Positions 2,381 to 7,655 of a stretch of 8,113 nucleotides of DNA are shown here, piece after piece; positions within the stretch are counted from its first letter, which is position 1, and every line of letters starts with the position of its first letter. The DNA comes from a virus (Duplodnaviria > Heunggongvirae > Uroviricota > Caudoviricetes), in the IMG/VR virus record IMGVR_UViG_2693429779_000008; one strand, written 5' to 3'. The position numbers and the translations under genes were made by a program. The notes below the pieces were generated by a model. It was not told the origin of the DNA. It worked only from the letters and a program-made list of their open reading frames with translations, and did not search any database.

Positions 2381-2566
2381 AAATGTCTCACAATTCAGAC
2401 GGTTGACAGTTGTCTGTTTTGCGGGGAGTTTGTTAAAAGAAACTGGCATGGTGAATCCCCCTGTGCGGAGGGGCAATCAGCGAGTAGGTATATGGGATAA
2501 TCGCGGATTCAGGTGCTGGTACTGAATTCACCGGGAGGCACCCGGCATCATGCAATGGCACATAGC
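2381..2566 (+). repeat. Module copy A: TTGACA hexamer, conserved hairpins, ends ...CACATAGC; candidate promoter/leader or structured-RNA unit
   Basis: Near-identical to 3554-3739 and 4501-4686; a diverged homolog lies at 4961-5184. Contains TTGACA (2403-2408), hairpin CCCCT-GTGCGG-AGGGG, and hairpin CCGGG-AGGCA-CCCGG. Followed by the type-1 terminator. Confidence 0.8.
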
Positions 2567-2578
2567 AGAGTTTCTACA

Positions 2579-2601
2579 ACCCGCCGCCGAGCGGGTTTTT
2601 T
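2579..2601 (+). terminator. Rho-independent terminator (second copy of type 1)
   Basis: Same ACCCGC-CGCCGA-GCGGGT hairpin plus T-run as 501-523, including the AGAGTTTCTACA lead-in. Confidence 0.6.
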
Positions 2602-2640
2602 ATTGCGGAATTAATTACGGACCGTTATTATTCTGCTCCC

Positions 2641-2716
2641 GGCCCTTTAGCTCAGTGGTGAGAGCGAGCGACTCATAATCGCCAGGTCGCTGGTTCAAAT
2701 CCAGCAAGGGCCACCA
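2641..2716 (+). tRNA. ileZ: tRNA with CAT anticodon (second copy, identical to 2091-2166)
   Basis: 76 nt identical to the first copy. The upstream spacer GAATTAATTACG...CTCCC is also duplicated with a few substitutions. Confidence 0.85.
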
Positions 2717-2723
2717 TCACAAA

Positions 2724-2803
2724 CCGCCATTAGCTTATCAGGAAGAGCAGACGACATGATAACAGGGTTGTTGGTGCGGGGGCGGGTCCCCGATGGCGGT
2801 CCA
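2724..2803 (+). pseudogene. Degenerate tRNA-like element (paralog of tRNA-Arg TCG with rewritten anticodon and T arms)
   Basis: Acceptor stem CCGCCAT/ATGGCGG and D-arm are retained, but the anticodon region is replaced by about 28 nt that do not form a canonical 5-bp stem with 7-nt loop, and the T-loop is GCGGGT instead of TTCAAGT. Probably non-functional, or a tRNA-derived element. Confidence 0.5.
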
Positions 2804-2816
2804 TTATCGGTATTCA

Positions 2817-2893
2817 GCGTTGTTAGCTCAGCCGGACAGAGCAATTGCCTTCTAAGCAATCGGTCACTGGTTCGAATCCAGTACAGCGCGCCA
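2817..2893 (+). tRNA. argO: tRNA-Arg, anticodon TCT (second copy, one acceptor-stem substitution giving a G-U pair)
   Basis: Same cloverleaf as 2264-2340. The 3' acceptor strand is ACAGCGC rather than ACAACGC. Confidence 0.8.
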
Positions 2894-3003
2894 TATTCAT
2901 TCTTCCAGATTCCTTCCGGCAGAGCCTTATACTGAAATATACCTGGCTCAGGATATTGTTGAAAATATTTTATGTTTGTCAAAAATAAAAGTTCTGTTAA
3001 GTA

Positions 3004-3357
3004 TTGATTGAGTGTTTGTTATACGGTCTAATGGTTTTTTCAGCATTAAATATTTATCATTCATATGGTGTGGGTAGAGTGAATATTGATGAGGCGTCGG
3101 GGTGTTTCATCCTTAGGCAGCGTATTGATATAGTCAATGCAGCACGAGCAAAGGCCTTCAGCCGTTTGACAGTTTTGTTCTGTACTCCTGATCGTCTTTC
3201 GGGAAGAGACGTTATTATTCTGAATAGTGATGCTATACAGAGGGTTTGCGATGAGTTCATGGTTGCTAATTCAGAATTATTTGCTCTTGTTCAGGAGTAC
3301 AACAGAATAGCCAGGACCTGTGGTATGGATGAACTTCGGATTACTCATCTGGGGTAG
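3004..3357 (+). CDS. Hypothetical protein, no recognisable family; start codon uncertain
   Basis: Open frame from TTG at 3004 to TAG at 3355-3357; alternative in-frame starts are ATG 3031 and GTG 3070/3079, none with a convincing Shine-Dalgarno. Preceded by an AT-rich promoter-like stretch (2940-3003). Coding status is unproven. Confidence 0.3.
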   Translation: MIECLLYGLMVFSALNIYHSYGVGRVNIDEASGCFILRQRIDIVNAARAKAFSRLTVLFCTPDRLSGRDVIILNSDAIQRVCDEFMVANSELFALVQEYNRIARTCGMDELRITHLG

Positions 3358-3553
3358 ATACATATCTGGATTATCACCTGTTACGGTAAAAAGTGATTGC
3401 TTACTGTTTTTGTGAATGGCATTGCAGCAGCCGGATAATGTCAGTGCTGGCTGACGGTGTGCTGGTGGCGGGTGTGGTGGTTGTTGCTTTCCCGTTGCTG
3501 AAAAAGAAAACGCCAGACTGTTAGCCGGGTATCAGTTAGCGGGAGAAATTTTT

Positions 3554-3739
3554 AAATACTTCACAATTCAGGCGGTTGACTGTTGTCTGGTTTGCGGGGA
3601 GTTTGTTAAAAGAAACTGGCATGGTGAATCCCCCTGTGCGGAGGGGCAATCAGCGAGTAGGTATATGGGATAATCGCGGATTCAGGTGCTGGTACTGAAT
3701 TCACCGGGAGGCACCCGGCACCATGCAATGGCACATAGC
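3554..3739 (+). repeat. Module copy B (hexamer is TTGACT in this copy)
   Basis: Aligns base-for-base with copy A apart from a few substitutions near the 5' end. Followed by the type-2 terminator. Confidence 0.8.
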
Positions 3740-3749
3740 GCCACTCTCC

Positions 3750-3774
3750 AGCCCCTCTCCGGAGGGGCTGTTTA
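3750..3774 (+). terminator. Rho-independent terminator (type 2)
   Basis: 8-bp stem AGCCCCTC/GAGGGGCT with TCCG loop, then GTTTATATT. Confidence 0.6.
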
Positions 3775-3804
3775 TATTGATTTTGTCAGATGTGAGTAAA
3801 CTCC

Positions 3805-4140
3805 TTATGGACTTTGTTGTTTTAGTCCATAAGGACATATTTGCAGAGTGCAACGGTTATTAAAGCATTCATTCAATACGTTATCTGTATTTGTAGGGCA
3901 TTCCTGGCTATTTTTGATTGAATTCCAGAATGTTTTATTGAATGGTACTACGTTGTAAATGGTTACAGGTAGCACTTTGTTATTGAGCATGATGCCTGTG
4001 TGAGTCAGTGTAAATATACTTTCAGGAGGTAAGAAAGCATCCGATTGATACCAGATTATTAATTTTATTTTACTCCATATGACTGAAAAAGATATTCCGC
4101 ATGATGGCTGGATAACTGTATCAATCACAATCCACTTCAT
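3805..4140 (-). CDS. Hypothetical protein, 111 aa, with four cysteines in the C-terminal part, encoded antisense to the late operon in an AT-rich island
   Basis: On the minus strand the ATG at 4140-4138 is preceded by AAGGAAACTAA (good Shine-Dalgarno spacing). Composition is visibly AT-rich compared with flanking phage DNA. A perfect 12-bp inverted repeat (3802-3813 / 3824-3835) overlaps the stop codon. No family recognised. Confidence 0.45.
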
Positions 4141-4502: not shown

Positions 4503-4686
4503 ATGTCTCACAATTCAGACGGTTGACAGTTGTCTGTTTTGCGGGGAGTTTGTTAAAAGAAACTGGCATGGTGAATCCCCCTGTGCGGAGGGGCAATCAG
4601 CGAGTAGGTATATGGGATAATCGCGGATTCAGGTGCTGGTACTGAATTCACCGGGAGGCACCCGGCATCATGCAATGGCACATAGC
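4501..4686 (+). repeat. Module copy C
   Basis: Near-identical to copy A (TTGACA at 4523-4528, same hairpins). Followed by the type-2 terminator. Confidence 0.8.
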
Positions 4687-4696
4687 GCCACTCTCC

Positions 4697-4720
4697 AGCC
4701 CTCTCCGGAGGGGCTTTTCT
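4697..4720 (+). terminator. Rho-independent terminator (type 2, one-base deletion variant)
   Basis: AGCCCTC-TCCG-GAGGGGCT followed by TTTTCT. Confidence 0.5.
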
Positions 4721-4909
4721 GTGCCGGATACATCACAGTTTCTGGAACCTTAGGTACTACAGTATCAGTCAGGGTGCTATATTTTCAGATGTGATGAAAG
4801 CCTGTCAGCAGGCAGGGCGTATCGGAAATGACCCAGTAGAGAAAACGTTGACTCAGATACCGGTGCTGAGTTACCGGGAAACCGGCATCACATGACCGCT
4901 ATCCTTCCA

Positions 4910-4936
4910 GGCCCATCCGCTCCGGTGGGCCTTTTT
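4910..4936 (+). terminator. Rho-independent terminator
   Basis: 8-bp stem GGCCCATC/GGTGGGCC (one G-U pair) with 6-nt loop, then TTTTT (4932-4936). Confidence 0.55.
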
Positions 4937-4960
4937 ACTGCAGAAAACAGGTTCCCCGTT

Positions 4961-5184
4961 AAATGCTATGTTGCTCACAATTCAGTAAGTTGACAGTTGC
5001 CTGTCAGACTGGGCATTTGTTAAAAAAATTTCGCATGGTGAATCCCCCTGAGCGGAGGGGCGACTGGTGACGGTATAATCTCTGATTATCAAAACGAGAA
5101 TGACGCGGGTTTAGTGGCACCGGGCTGAACTCACCGGGAGGCACCCGGCACCATGTGCATGATGATACAGATACGCGGCTTTAG
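4961..5184 (+). repeat. Module copy D (diverged homolog of A/B/C)
   Basis: Shares CTCACAATTCAG, TTGACAGTTG, TTTGTTAAAA, CATGGTGAATCCCCCTG-GCGGAGGGG, a TATAAT at the position of TATATG in A-C, and CTCACCGGGAGGCACCCGGCA. Intervening segments differ and include insertions. Confidence 0.7.
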
Positions 5185-5204
5185 CCCCTCTCCGGAGGGG
5201 TTTT
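5185..5204 (+). terminator. Rho-independent terminator (type 2 variant) closing copy D
   Basis: Stem CCCCTC/GAGGGG with TCCG loop, then TTTTCTTGTG. An A7 run plus the GCCCGCG/CGCGGGC hairpin immediately downstream (5214-5242) would act as a terminator for the opposite strand. Confidence 0.55.
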
Positions 5205-5435
5205 CTTGTGGGCAAAAAAAGCCCGCGCTGGGAGACGCGGGCGGCAAGGAATAAACAATAAAACGTGAAGTAATATTTCAGCTGGCGAATAATACCCCAT
5301 AGTAATCACTCTGCGCAACTGCGCGGTCTTTTTCGAATTGCGGGCTGTCGTCTCTCTTCTGCCATTGTCCTGTAACTTCCGGACTTCAGCCCGCTCCTTA
5401 TTTTACTCACAATATTATCCCGGCCGGGAGGATTC

Positions 5436-7289
5436 ATGGCATTTAAACACTATGACGTGGTCAGGGCGGCATCGCCGTCAGACCTTGCGAAACGACTGAC
5501 ACAAAAACTGAAGGAGGGCTGGCAGCCGTTTGGTAGTCCGGTGGCCATAACCCCTTATACCCTGATGCAGGCGATTGCAGCAGAAGGTGATGTGGTCGTC
5601 AGTGGTGCAACTGAGCCGGAGTGGTACTACGTCATCGTACTGGCCGGGCAATCCAATGCCATGGCTTACGGTGAAGGTCTTCCGCTTCCGGATTCATACG
5701 ATGCGCCCCATCCGCGCATTAAGCAACTGGCCCGTCGTAACACAGTGACTCCCGGTGGTGAAGTATGCGTATTTAACGACATCATTCCTGCTGACCATTG
5801 TCTGCATGATGTTCAGGATATGAGTACGATTAACCATCCCCGGGCTGACCTGAGCAAAGGGCAGTACGGCTGTGTCGGACAGGGCTTACATATTGCCAAA
5901 AAACTGCTTCCGTATATCCCTAATAATGCGGGGATCCTGCTGGTACCATGCTGTTGTGGTGGTTCGGCATTCACCCAGGGCACGGAGGGGACATTCAGCG
6001 AGTCCACGGGGGCCAGTCAGGATTCGGCTCGCTGGGGAGTGGGTAAGCCGTTATATCAGGATCTGCTTTTCCGCACGAAGGCAGCATTGCAGAAAAACCC
6101 GAAAAACGTTTTGCTGGCGATATGCTGGATGCAGGGGGAATTCGATATGACGAATGCCAGTTACGCCCAGCAGCCAGCAGCATTTCTTGCAATGGTACAG
6201 CAGTTCCGTGCTGACCTTGCCGGGCTGGCGGCGCAGTGTCACGGTGGAAGTCCGGCATCAGTCCCCTGGATTTGTGGCGACACGACATACGCGTGGAAAC
6301 AAGAACACGGTACGCAATATGAAGTGGTATATGGTGCATATAAAGGTAAAGAATCCCAGCAGATTTATTTTGTTCCCTTTATGACCGATGGTAGCGGAGT
6401 TAATACACCGACAAACAACCCGTCAGAAGATCCTGATATTGCCGGGTCTGGTTATTACGGTTCGGCATCCCGAACGAACAAAAACTGGGTATCATCAAAT
6501 CGCCCGACGCATTTCAGCTCATGGGCGCGTCGTGGCATTATTCCCGATCGTATGGCAACTGCTATTCTGAACGTAGCCGGTCGCACCTTAGCCTTCATTA
6601 GTGGTAAGGCACCGGAAATCAAACCCTCGCCCGGCGGCGACACGCCATCGGGGCCGTCTGAAGATGCATCCATACGCACAATCTCCCTGTTGCCGACAGC
6701 CGGAGACGCTGCTGCGCAGGGCTGGAGCATTAAGAATGGCGGAGTTCAGTTGTCAGATGGTGTATTTAAGATCACCAAGCAGAGCAATAAAGCCTGGTCC
6801 CTGACGCGCCCGGTGGATGACGCAGTCTCCCTGCTGACACGGGGTGGCAGACTGAGCTGTAAGTTTCGACTGTCAGGCGCACTGACCAACAACCAGTTCG
6901 GTCTGGGAATTTATCTGTATACCGATGTAGCGTTACCTGACGTCGTGGCGATGACCGGGACTGGTAACCCGTTCCTGATGTCGTTCTTCACCCAGACCAC
7001 AGACGGCAAACTGAATCTGATGCATCACAAGAAAGCAGGAAACACAAAGTTGGGCGAGTTCGGGAATTACAGTAACGACTGGCTGACGCTGGAGCTGGTG
7101 TTCACCGCCGGCAGTGCCACGGTTACTCCGAAACTGAATGGAGTGGCTGGCCCGGCATTCCAGGTCATAAAAGACAGTCTGACACTGGGGCTGAATGCGC
7201 TGACGCTGACGGATATTACCAAAAATGCAGCGTATGGCGTTGAGATAGAAAGTCTGGTGCTGGAGATAAATGCACCGGCATCATCATAA
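5436..7289 (+). CDS. nanS-p: Prophage NanS-p-type sialate O-acetylesterase (DUF1737 N-terminus, SGNH/SASA esterase core, C-terminal domain of unknown function), 617 aa
   Basis: ATG at 5436 is preceded by GGGAGG. The GQSNA motif carries the SGNH-family catalytic serine. The N-terminus matches the DUF1737 pattern of Stx-prophage esterases that normally lie between the stx/tRNA region and the lysis genes. Recognition-based; no search was run. Confidence 0.9.
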   Translation: MAFKHYDVVRAASPSDLAKRLTQKLKEGWQPFGSPVAITPYTLMQAIAAEGDVVVSGATEPEWYYVIVLAGQSNAMAYGEGLPLPDSYDAPHPRIKQLARRNTVTPGGEVCVFNDIIPADHCLHDVQDMSTINHPRADLSKGQYGCVGQGLHIAKKLLPYIPNNAGILLVPCCCGGSAFTQGTEGTFSESTGASQDSARWGVGKPLYQDLLFRTKAALQKNPKNVLLAICWMQGEFDMTNASYAQQPAAFLAMVQQFRADLAGLAAQCHGGSPASVPWICGDTTYAWKQEHGTQYEVVYGAYKGKESQQIYFVPFMTDGSGVNTPTNNPSEDPDIAGSGYYGSASRTNKNWVSSNRPTHFSSWARRGIIPDRMATAILNVAGRTLAFISGKAPEIKPSPGGDTPSGPSEDASIRTISLLPTAGDAAAQGWSIKNGGVQLSDGVFKITKQSNKAWSLTRPVDDAVSLLTRGGRLSCKFRLSGALTNNQFGLGIYLYTDVALPDVVAMTGTGNPFLMSFFTQTTDGKLNLMHHKKAGNTKLGEFGNYSNDWLTLELVFTAGSATVTPKLNGVAGPAFQVIKDSLTLGLNALTLTDITKNAAYGVEIESLVLEINAPASS

Positions 7290-7374
7290 AAAGTGAGCCA
7301 GCCAAATGGAAGGTATCGTTAAACTCACCGGTAGTGTCAGTGGGTCGTCTGAGATGCCTGCATGAGTTATCAGA

Positions 7375-7404
7375 GCCATCAGTACTTAACTGGTGGCTTT
7401 TTTT
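7375..7404 (+). terminator. Rho-independent terminator downstream of nanS-p
   Basis: Stem GCCATCAG/CTGGTGGC (one G-U pair) with loop TACTTAA, then TTTTTTT (7398-7404). Confidence 0.6.
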
Positions 7405-7439
7405 ATTGTTGTCAGCTTCCGGATAACGGGAGACGGGGT

Positions 7440-7655
7440 ATGTACCAGATGGAAAAAATCACAACAGGTGTGTCATACACCACGTCAGCGGTGGGAACGG
7501 GCTACTGGTTCCTGCAGTTGCTGGACAGGGTTTCCCCGTCTCAGTGGGCGGCAATAGGCGTGCTGGGGAGTCTGCTGTTTGGGCTGCTGACATATCTGAC
7601 TAACCTGTATTTCAAAATCAGAGAGGACCGTCGTAAGGCTGCACGGGGAGAGTAA
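7440..7655 (+). CDS. S: Class II pinholin, phage 21 S-type, with dual start motif (MYQM...)
   Basis: GGAGACGGGG Shine-Dalgarno precedes ATG 7440, with a second in-frame ATG at 7449, matching the antiholin/holin dual start of S21. The sequence ...[51 protein letters not shown] matches S21 as recalled. The ORF track's longer ORF from 7362 runs through the upstream terminator and is unlikely to be translated. Confidence 0.85.

Follow-up and report, generated by a model that had tools for sequence, protein, structure and literature searches.

A probable 92-amino-acid accessory gene in the late-regulatory region of a lambdoid prophage

The 8,113-nucleotide stretch of DNA analyzed here (the window; IMG/VR virus record IMGVR_UViG_2693429779_000008) is the late-regulatory region of a lambdoid prophage. 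On its plus strand, a program-made list of open reading frames (ORFs) places a 117-codon frame with a TTG start at 3004..3357, exactly as described in an earlier note on this DNA. That note recognized no relative and left three explanations open: a real gene whose start codon is non-canonical, a pseudogene, or DNA that codes for nothing. This locus raises three questions: is the ORF a gene, where does its translation start, and what could its product do? Our analysis indicates that it very probably contains a real accessory gene of the late operon, which belongs to a family of phage proteins represented by phrog_2873 and phrog_4827. By sequence comparison, the gene is shorter than the ORF, and the relevant features are the following.

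3004..3078, plus strand: the 25 leading codons of the 117-codon ORF, a probable untranslated 5' leader that is open and in frame by chance
3067..3075, plus strand: weak Shine-Dalgarno-like G-rich stretch (GGTGTGGGT) preceding the conserved GTG at 3079
3079..3357, plus strand: the true coding sequence as indicated by conservation, with GTG start, 92 codons and TAG stop; phrog_2873 family

Conservation of the reading frame

The length of the ORF is within the range expected by chance, and spurious antisense ORFs of 168 and 114 amino acids occur inside real genes of the window. We therefore judged it to be a gene because it is conserved, not because it is long. The window was compared with two diverged alleles, L003 (NZ_AP027432; ORF 3032-3310) and L004 (NZ_AP027246; ORF 3071-3349). 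At 67-72% DNA identity, the three share the same frame of 92 codons, the GTG start and a coincident stop with zero indels, and the similarity of their DNA fades past the stop codon. Differences are distributed over the three codon positions at ∼19/19/40, and Nei-Gojobori dN/dS values are 0.256, 0.263 and 0.266, at dS of 0.95-1.19. Four of the five alternative frames have a dN/dS of ∼1 and contain 2-13 stops. A low dN/dS is also seen, as expected, in the antisense frame sharing third positions, yet two of the three alleles have stops in it. Furthermore, all of the 82 near-identical copies that we took from IMG/VR and from genomes are intact, and their core contains 6 synonymous and 5 non-synonymous polymorphic sites (pN/pS ∼0.24). 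Judged by these substitution patterns, the 92-amino-acid gene is under purifying selection.

It is very improbable that the stretch is instead a chance open frame, a pseudogene or a non-coding spacer. The Shine-Dalgarno sequence is weak, the start is not ATG, ORFs of like length elsewhere in the window are spurious, and PGAP made no gene call in any of the sampled RefSeq copies at ≥99% identity, all of which would fit such a reading. But a dN/dS of 0.26 at a dS of ∼1, three diverged alleles without an indel or stop and 82 of 82 unbroken close copies do not. In addition, full-length homologues with ATG starts and good Shine-Dalgarno sequences are present in seven other genera, and PGAP itself annotates the L003 allele (WP_001017777.1). 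The divergent orthologues are thus free of the stops and frameshifts that the pseudogene or non-coding status considered earlier would have entailed.

Least probable of all is a gene on the opposite strand, either the 67-amino-acid ORF 3057-3260 (minus) or the window equivalent (2948-3064) of a minus-strand coding sequence of phage mEp460: an open antisense frame does exist (95 amino acids long in L003), a 'hypothetical protein' is annotated on the minus strand of mEp460 at the 5' edge, and the antisense frame sharing third positions is low in dN/dS, but that frame has two stops in the window and two in L004, a low dN/dS is to be expected there as the shadow of the plus-strand gene, and the homologues of other genera are called on the plus strand, in line with the late operon.

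Position of the translation start

From this sequence alone the start codon is ambiguous, as had been stated before, since there are four in-frame candidates (TTG 3004, ATG 3031, GTG 3070 and GTG 3079). The comparison with other loci points to GTG 3079. In a three-way DNA alignment, the start region GTGAATATTGATGA is identical in the window, L003 and L004. Ahead of this GTG, L003 has an in-frame TGA at a distance of 8 codons and L004 an in-frame TAA at 6 codons; the upstream DNA of the window and L004 can be aligned, with indels of 2, 2 and 3 nt. A set of 21 family members, representing eight genera, have N-termini that align at the same GTG (MNIDEASGC... vs M(SE)INFEALGRC...), and the distant relatives in this alignment have no residues equivalent to 3004-3078. 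Among the 82 close copies, these 75 nt contain 5 non-synonymous changes, 1 synonymous change and a 1-nt deletion, the latter in a copy with an intact core. A Shine-Dalgarno-like motif precedes the start in every lineage, namely AGGAG in L003, GGTG in L004 and the window, and AAGGA or GGGAG before the ATG of other genera. In the window, GGTGTGGGT is the only such sequence ahead of GTG 3079, in agreement with the weak Shine-Dalgarno sequence noted earlier. Taken together, the earlier idea of a gene with a non-canonical start holds for the type of codon (GTG), but the start appears to lie at 3079 instead of TTG 3004, for a product of 92 rather than 117 amino acids. The preceding 3004..3078 is most likely an untranslated 5' leader.

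A longer product is unlikely. It would comprise 117 amino acids from TTG 3004 or 108 from ATG 3031, and its hydrophobic N-terminal segment (MIECLLYGLMVFSAL...) could be a membrane anchor. Most close copies are open from 3004, and relative P0021 likewise has a 24-residue extension. Moreover, the phrog_2873 profile has 108 positions, its match begins at residue 10 of the 117-amino-acid form, and phrog_2873 members of this type are called from the upstream ATG (108 amino acids). However, this stretch contains the in-frame stops of L003 and L004 and the three indels described above, its density of non-synonymous changes is ∼3.6 times that of the core, one copy is frameshifted within it while keeping the core intact, and its residues are found in no distant relative. 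The evidence thus favors the 92-amino-acid GTG form, and both the 108-amino-acid form of gene callers and of the phrog_2873 profile and the 117-amino-acid form are probably over-extensions.

Upstream of the start, L004 contains a 23-codon ORF (2999-3073; MIDCIRYSLNVFS...), the TGA of which overlaps the GTG start (GTGA). The window stretch 3004-3078 is the counterpart of this ORF, fused in frame to the gene; the DNA can be aligned, the frame cannot. In the Serratia/Morganella/Xenorhabdus subfamily (P0033, P0036, P0042 and P0043; 4968-5000 in L095 and L102), a conserved in-frame extension of 11 codons, MS[IV]QY[IV]L+GYS, lies ahead of the ATG that follows the Shine-Dalgarno sequence. Therefore, the start codon is ambiguous in that subfamily as well.

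Family and occurrence

Over residues 1-92, the product matches phrog_2873, a PHROG family of unknown function, with E = 5.6e-58. A second, weak match is to phrog_4827 (E = 2.2e-5, residues 8-88). Because relatives from Serratia and Morganella match both, the two entries are, on sequence grounds, one family, with members of 91-110 amino acids that share the full-length match and a predicted two-helix architecture; Sb55 of Salmonella phage ST64B is one of them. The earlier statement that the ORF matches nothing recognizable is thus true of function, which has been assigned to no family member, but not of the sequence, which was already catalogued as phrog_2873. The 92-amino-acid product has no Pfam, NCBIfam or PADLOC match (the latter at E ≤ 1), and when nine family members were scanned against Pfam, only isolated single matches resulted. 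A sub-threshold match to the Pfam RHIM domain (E = 0.093) was obtained with the 117-amino-acid form only and was dismissed as chance. In the literature on DUF3927, tciA/tciB, ST64B sb55 and late-operon morons we found nothing on this protein.

Members were found only in temperate phages and prophages of Enterobacterales. When 1.84 billion representative proteins were searched exhaustively with an HMM, only 21 matched. Two profile iterations against 5.8 billion clusters extended the family to Citrobacter, Salmonella, Serratia, Morganella, Xenorhabdus and Yersinia, with proteins of 91-110 amino acids, all named 'hypothetical' and none with a Pfam domain. Scanning one genome per species (185,579 species) yielded three loci, in E. 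coli, Citrobacter braakii and one metagenome bin. Of 50,697 phage records, only those of Escherichia phage mEp460, ST64B (gene sb55) and two relatives contain a family member, with mEp460 being the only match at the DNA level. Within E. coli, the locus is present in 1,314 of 5,426 complete genomes (24%), mostly as copies with ≥99% identity, while 128 copies show 60-80%. The sampled ≥99% identical copies that lack a RefSeq gene call include CFT073, ST131 and Shiga-toxin-producing strains.

Predicted structure of the product

The deduced protein has a mass of 10.4 kDa and a pI of 5.7, and most relatives have a pI of 5-7. Based on the 21-sequence alignment, AlphaFold2 produced five concordant models (mean pLDDT 84.9-87.7) with helices at residues 3-33 and 50-81, connected by a 16-residue loop with a conserved (Y/F)xxPD motif; a run with three sequences gave the same fold. 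The product is thus predicted to be a soluble, near-neutral, antiparallel two-helix coiled-coil hairpin. No membrane segment is apparent (maximum Kyte-Doolittle score 0.94), and neither a catalytic motif nor a basic surface was found in the predicted product.

Conserved hydrophobic positions follow a 3-4 heptad spacing in both helix 1 (9, 12, 16, 19, (R23), 26/27, 30, 34) and helix 2 (53, 57, 60, (N64), 67, 71, 74, 78, 81). Invariant across the family are Arg23, Asn64 and Asn75 (numbering of the window protein). Because of this spacing, Arg23 and Asn64 fall into the core register, where they are predicted to form a polar layer. Buried polar layers in coiled coils typically set register or partner specificity.

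Layout of the window

The gene is embedded in the following features, which run from the end of the Q gene to the holin.

51-419: Q antiterminator, C-terminal part (Pfam Antiterm, E = 6.5e-32)
992-2050: DNA methylase
2417-2608, plus strand: STnc100 copy A (Rfam RF02076, 119 bits), with a terminator-like hairpin at 2578-2597
2641-2893, plus strand: second tRNA set, directly upstream of the 92-amino-acid gene and on the same strand (ARAGORN, Rfam and alignment to the first set)
2641-2716, plus strand: tRNA(CAT), named tRNA-Ile by PGAP in homologous loci
2717-2816: decayed tRNA-Arg(tcg) copy, missed by ARAGORN and Rfam
2817-2893, plus strand: tRNA-Arg(tct)
2930..3003: AT-rich spacer (GC 0.26) with one weak sigma-70-like match, TTGAAA-16-AAAAAT, at 2959-2986 (9 of 12)
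3393-3524, plus strand: small hydrophobic DUF3927 (TciB-like) protein of 43 amino acids (Pfam PF13064, E = 1.7e-27; phrog_1470)
3590-3779, plus strand: STnc100 copy B (RF02076, 132 bits), with a terminator at 3749-3770; the 'module copy B' of the earlier note and the downstream bound of the gene pair
4537-4726 and 5004-5213: further full STnc100 copies (RF02076)
4765-4938: weak STnc100 copy (Rfam RF02076)
5436-7289: sialate-esterase-type gene (nanS-p) with SASA, DUF1737 and DUF6645 domains
7362-7655: P21-type holin

A DUF1327 gene is also present in the window. The interval between the methylase and the esterase holds two tRNA sets and the repeated STnc100 modules. In total, there are four full STnc100 copies and a weak one, all within 2.8 kb and each followed by different cargo; five are present in locus L004. 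Their position after Q leads us to read them as repeated modules of late-promoter leader and terminator. A preprint on Pas/STnc100 small RNAs provides context for the repeated module only. None of the 5,426 complete E. coli genomes was seen to carry the full arrangement of the window; the closest match spans 88% of it and has fewer modules. The placement of the ORF between a second tRNA triplet and module copy B is correct with regard to the module, which is STnc100, but the 'triplet' consists of two intact tRNAs that flank a decayed copy. The flanks of this decayed tRNA-Arg(tcg) match the first tRNA set, and its anticodon and T-arm region is scrambled. A 48-nt direct repeat with 92% identity is located at 485-532, just past the Q gene, and at 2563-2610, the end of STnc100 copy A; both contain the same terminator hairpin.

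Downstream, the DUF3927 gene (named 'DUF3927 family protein' by PGAP in homologous loci) begins 35 nt past the stop codon of the 92-amino-acid gene. Its product is N-terminally short, with 43 amino acids as compared to 50-54 in phage JLK-2012 (TciB, 54 amino acids) and Citrobacter. In both of these, the TerB-like tciA precedes DUF3927, and this gene is missing in the window. The shortened DUF3927 and the missing tciA therefore suggest that a deletion may have brought the 92-amino-acid gene next to DUF3927. The 92-amino-acid gene itself is not tciA, an identity that we rejected: TciA of JLK-2012 is an unrelated, separate protein of 143 amino acids, and the 92-amino-acid product has no Pfam (TerB) match. 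In the Citrobacter locus (L087), the TerB-like TciA counterpart (141 amino acids; phrog_632 'tellurite resistance', faint Pfam TerB match) is a separate gene downstream of the family member. Between STnc100 copies B and C, on the minus strand, lies an ORF of 111 amino acids (3805-4140) without a Pfam match, which PGAP names 'anti-adapter protein IraM' in homologous loci. A gene resembling a host regulator thus sits antisense inside the late region.

Genomic position across lineages

In most lineages the gene is found on the late-operon strand, where Q and usually also phage tRNAs precede it and the holin and endolysin genes follow; this placement between Q and the lysis cassette was seen in eight lineages. 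The gene orders are as follows.

Window: Q, methylase, tRNAs and STnc100 modules, gene, sialate esterase (nanS-p), holin
Common E. coli arrangement: Q, methylase, tRNA-Ile, tRNA-Arg, gene, DUF3927, IraM (other strand), esterase, holin
E. coli L003: methylase, gene, holin
Citrobacter (L087): gene, TerB-like gene, DUF3927, holins, endolysin
Serratia marcescens: Q, tRNAs, gene, holin, lysozyme
Morganella: Q, methylase, gene, holin, lysozyme
Yersinia and Serratia fonticola: Q, gene, holin, endolysin

The adjacent Q proteins vary by lineage (Antiterm vs Phage_antitermQ/DUF1133), and the neighboring holins belong to four families: the P21 S type in the window and Morganella, Phage_holin_8 and 3_7 in Citrobacter and S. 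fonticola, and phrog_20 in S. marcescens. A link to a particular tRNA was rejected, since the upstream tRNAs also vary by lineage (Ile2/Arg, Thr, Met/Gly, Asn or none). The conserved trait is the place in the late transcript and not any given neighbor. Three copies depart from this placement: one in Xenorhabdus that adjoins an insertion sequence, and the ST64B and plasmid-like copies described below.

The same place is taken by stx and other cargo: it follows Q, the late leader and phage tRNAs and precedes nanS-p and the holin. The homologues in other genera, which come after Q and phage tRNAs and before lysis genes, support the earlier remark that the ORF occupies the moron position of stx. 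By analogy, the likeness would include dependence on Q read-through. In contrast to stx and other such cargo, the 92-amino-acid product has no signal peptide, enzyme domain or toxin similarity, and unlike sporadic cargo, its family keeps the position across genera at 21-40% identity.

Expression

In lambdoid and Stx phages, transcripts from the late promoter stop at the leader terminator unless Q has modified the polymerase. Following this model, STnc100 copy A is likely the late-leader RNA (pR'-tR') with its terminator at 2578-2597, and would be the Q-dependent entry point for the tRNAs and the gene. Past this terminator, we found no supported promoter or terminator belonging to the gene. A promoter scan gave 6 sites compared to 4.5 ± 2.0 in shuffled sequences and hence no enrichment, and there was no terminator-like site between 3357 and 3590. 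The upstream region is indeed AT-rich, as had been noted (GC 0.26 in 2930-3003 and 0.31 in 2894-3078, against 0.49 for the whole window), but its description as promoter-like finds no support, since matches do not exceed the shuffled expectation. A weak terminator-like hairpin (3 G-C pairs) inside the coding sequence, at 3193-3211, shows no conservation in L003.

With a late-leader terminator upstream and no supported promoter or terminator of its own, the gene most likely stays silent in the lysogen and is expressed upon induction. Q-modified RNA polymerase would then read through the leader terminator, so that the gene would be made together with the late genes, as stx is here. Expression from the Q-antiterminated late transcript thus appears most likely from the anatomy of the locus and the biology of lambdoid and Stx phages.

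An RNA element in this region was considered and rejected: no Rfam family overlaps 2894-3560, and the leader folds like shuffled sequences (z = 0.13 for 2894-3100, no better than the shuffles).

Possible functions

Because the predicted fold has no enzymatic features, we propose that the product would act stoichiometrically late in infection, either by self-association of the coiled-coil hairpin or by binding to a partner. Its likeliest role, which we put forward tentatively, is that of a dispensable modulator of the late or lysis phase. Somewhat further from being probable is an as yet unrecognized late-phase effector, whose hairpin would bind a conserved host or phage target and could, for example, tune the timing of lysis or neutralize a late-acting host defense.

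Small soluble proteins that act on lysis are known: RIII of phage T4 is a cytoplasmic antiholin, small, soluble and helical, that is expressed with the lysis genes. The 92-amino-acid family is likewise small and is predicted to be soluble and helical, and in Morganella, Yersinia and S. fonticola its gene lies directly upstream of the holin gene. The analogy is tentative and is limited by several differences. The neighboring holins of the family belong to several unrelated families, the ST64B gene follows the lysis cassette, and the gene in the window is 4 kb away from the holin. The linkage or co-variation with one holin that would be expected of an antiholin was not observed, as the holins differ across lineages.

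Several observations weigh against the picture of a late-operon gene with a late-phase role. With respect to the gene itself, these are the missing PGAP calls among the ≥99% identical copies and the weak Shine-Dalgarno sequence, behind which we infer translation from GTG 3079 from conservation only. With respect to its expression, the AT-rich spacer may contain a weak promoter of its own. Two of the exceptions in position also count here. In ST64B, which is alone among the lineages examined in having the gene past the lysis cassette, Sb55 (L106, 39326-39628) follows the holin, endolysin, Rz and the putative regulator Sb54, and precedes HNH and terminase genes. A 91-amino-acid E. coli relative with 34% identity, P0034, is encoded on plasmid-like contigs without lysis genes (L098-L101, 5001-5276). 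Its neighbors are a K88-like fimbrial operon (PapB, usher, chaperone) and a Rep3 replicon, with a tRNA-Thr ∼580 nt upstream, and this locus appears to be a piece captured from the late region of a prophage. With respect to function, structure searches returned generic helical hairpins only, none of them significant, nothing ties the protein to a partner or phenotype, and no co-variation with a candidate partner was seen, the neighboring holin and Q families differing by lineage.

The alternative that survives best has about the same standing as the effector just described. Here, the gene would be a lysogenic-conversion moron with a promoter of its own that is active in the lysogen, and would serve the host, for example in phage exclusion or defense, possibly together with the adjacent DUF3927 (TciB-like) peptide. 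A moron is an independently expressed insert in a phage operon (PMC2629481). The gene shares its site with stx and other cargo, one promoter-like match lies in the AT-rich spacer upstream, TerB-like and DUF3927 genes follow in Citrobacter and DUF3927 in the window, and one copy survives on plasmid-like contigs. The distribution is that of an element with a fixed place which only some related phages carry: it is patchy in E. coli (the 1,314 of 5,426 complete genomes) and, at the DNA level, only mEp460 among the phage records matches. However, the promoter-like sites do not exceed the shuffled expectation and no terminator follows the gene. There is no PADLOC match, and no DUF3927 gene lies beside the homologues of L003, L004, Serratia, Morganella or Yersinia. 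Furthermore, homologues with 21-40% protein identity retain the late-operon place beside Q and holin genes of different families, which points to late expression.

It is highly unlikely that the product is a distant GapR/UPF0335-like (DUF2312) DNA-binding protein. The lengths are similar (89 vs 92 amino acids), and there is a weak likeness over the first helix and the following turn: the best matches of the family profile to PDB sequences were repeatedly to GapR chains (E = 0.054-0.25, helix 1), with a similar ...VY-x7-G-x-DVKV... continuation. But the similarity is non-significant, with an hhalign probability of 23.7% and no Pfam DUF2312 match, and it conflicts with charge and fold, GapR being a basic, DNA-clamping protein and the 92-amino-acid product acidic to neutral with a different predicted fold.

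Significance

The phage protein family to which this gene belongs was already catalogued but uncharacterized; what is new is the definition of the start codon and the joining of two PHROGs. The locus is present in about a quarter of complete E. coli genomes, yet has no RefSeq call in the sampled copies at ≥99% identity, which represents a modest annotation gap. There is no sign of a new mechanism: this is a conserved hypothetical gene, and the value of the finding lies mainly in the correction of annotation. Its steady position at the head of the late operon across genera, beside unrelated types of Q and holin, makes the gene a reasonable candidate for a dispensable late-phase function, and since mEp460 is a viable phage that carries it, such a function would be cheap to test.

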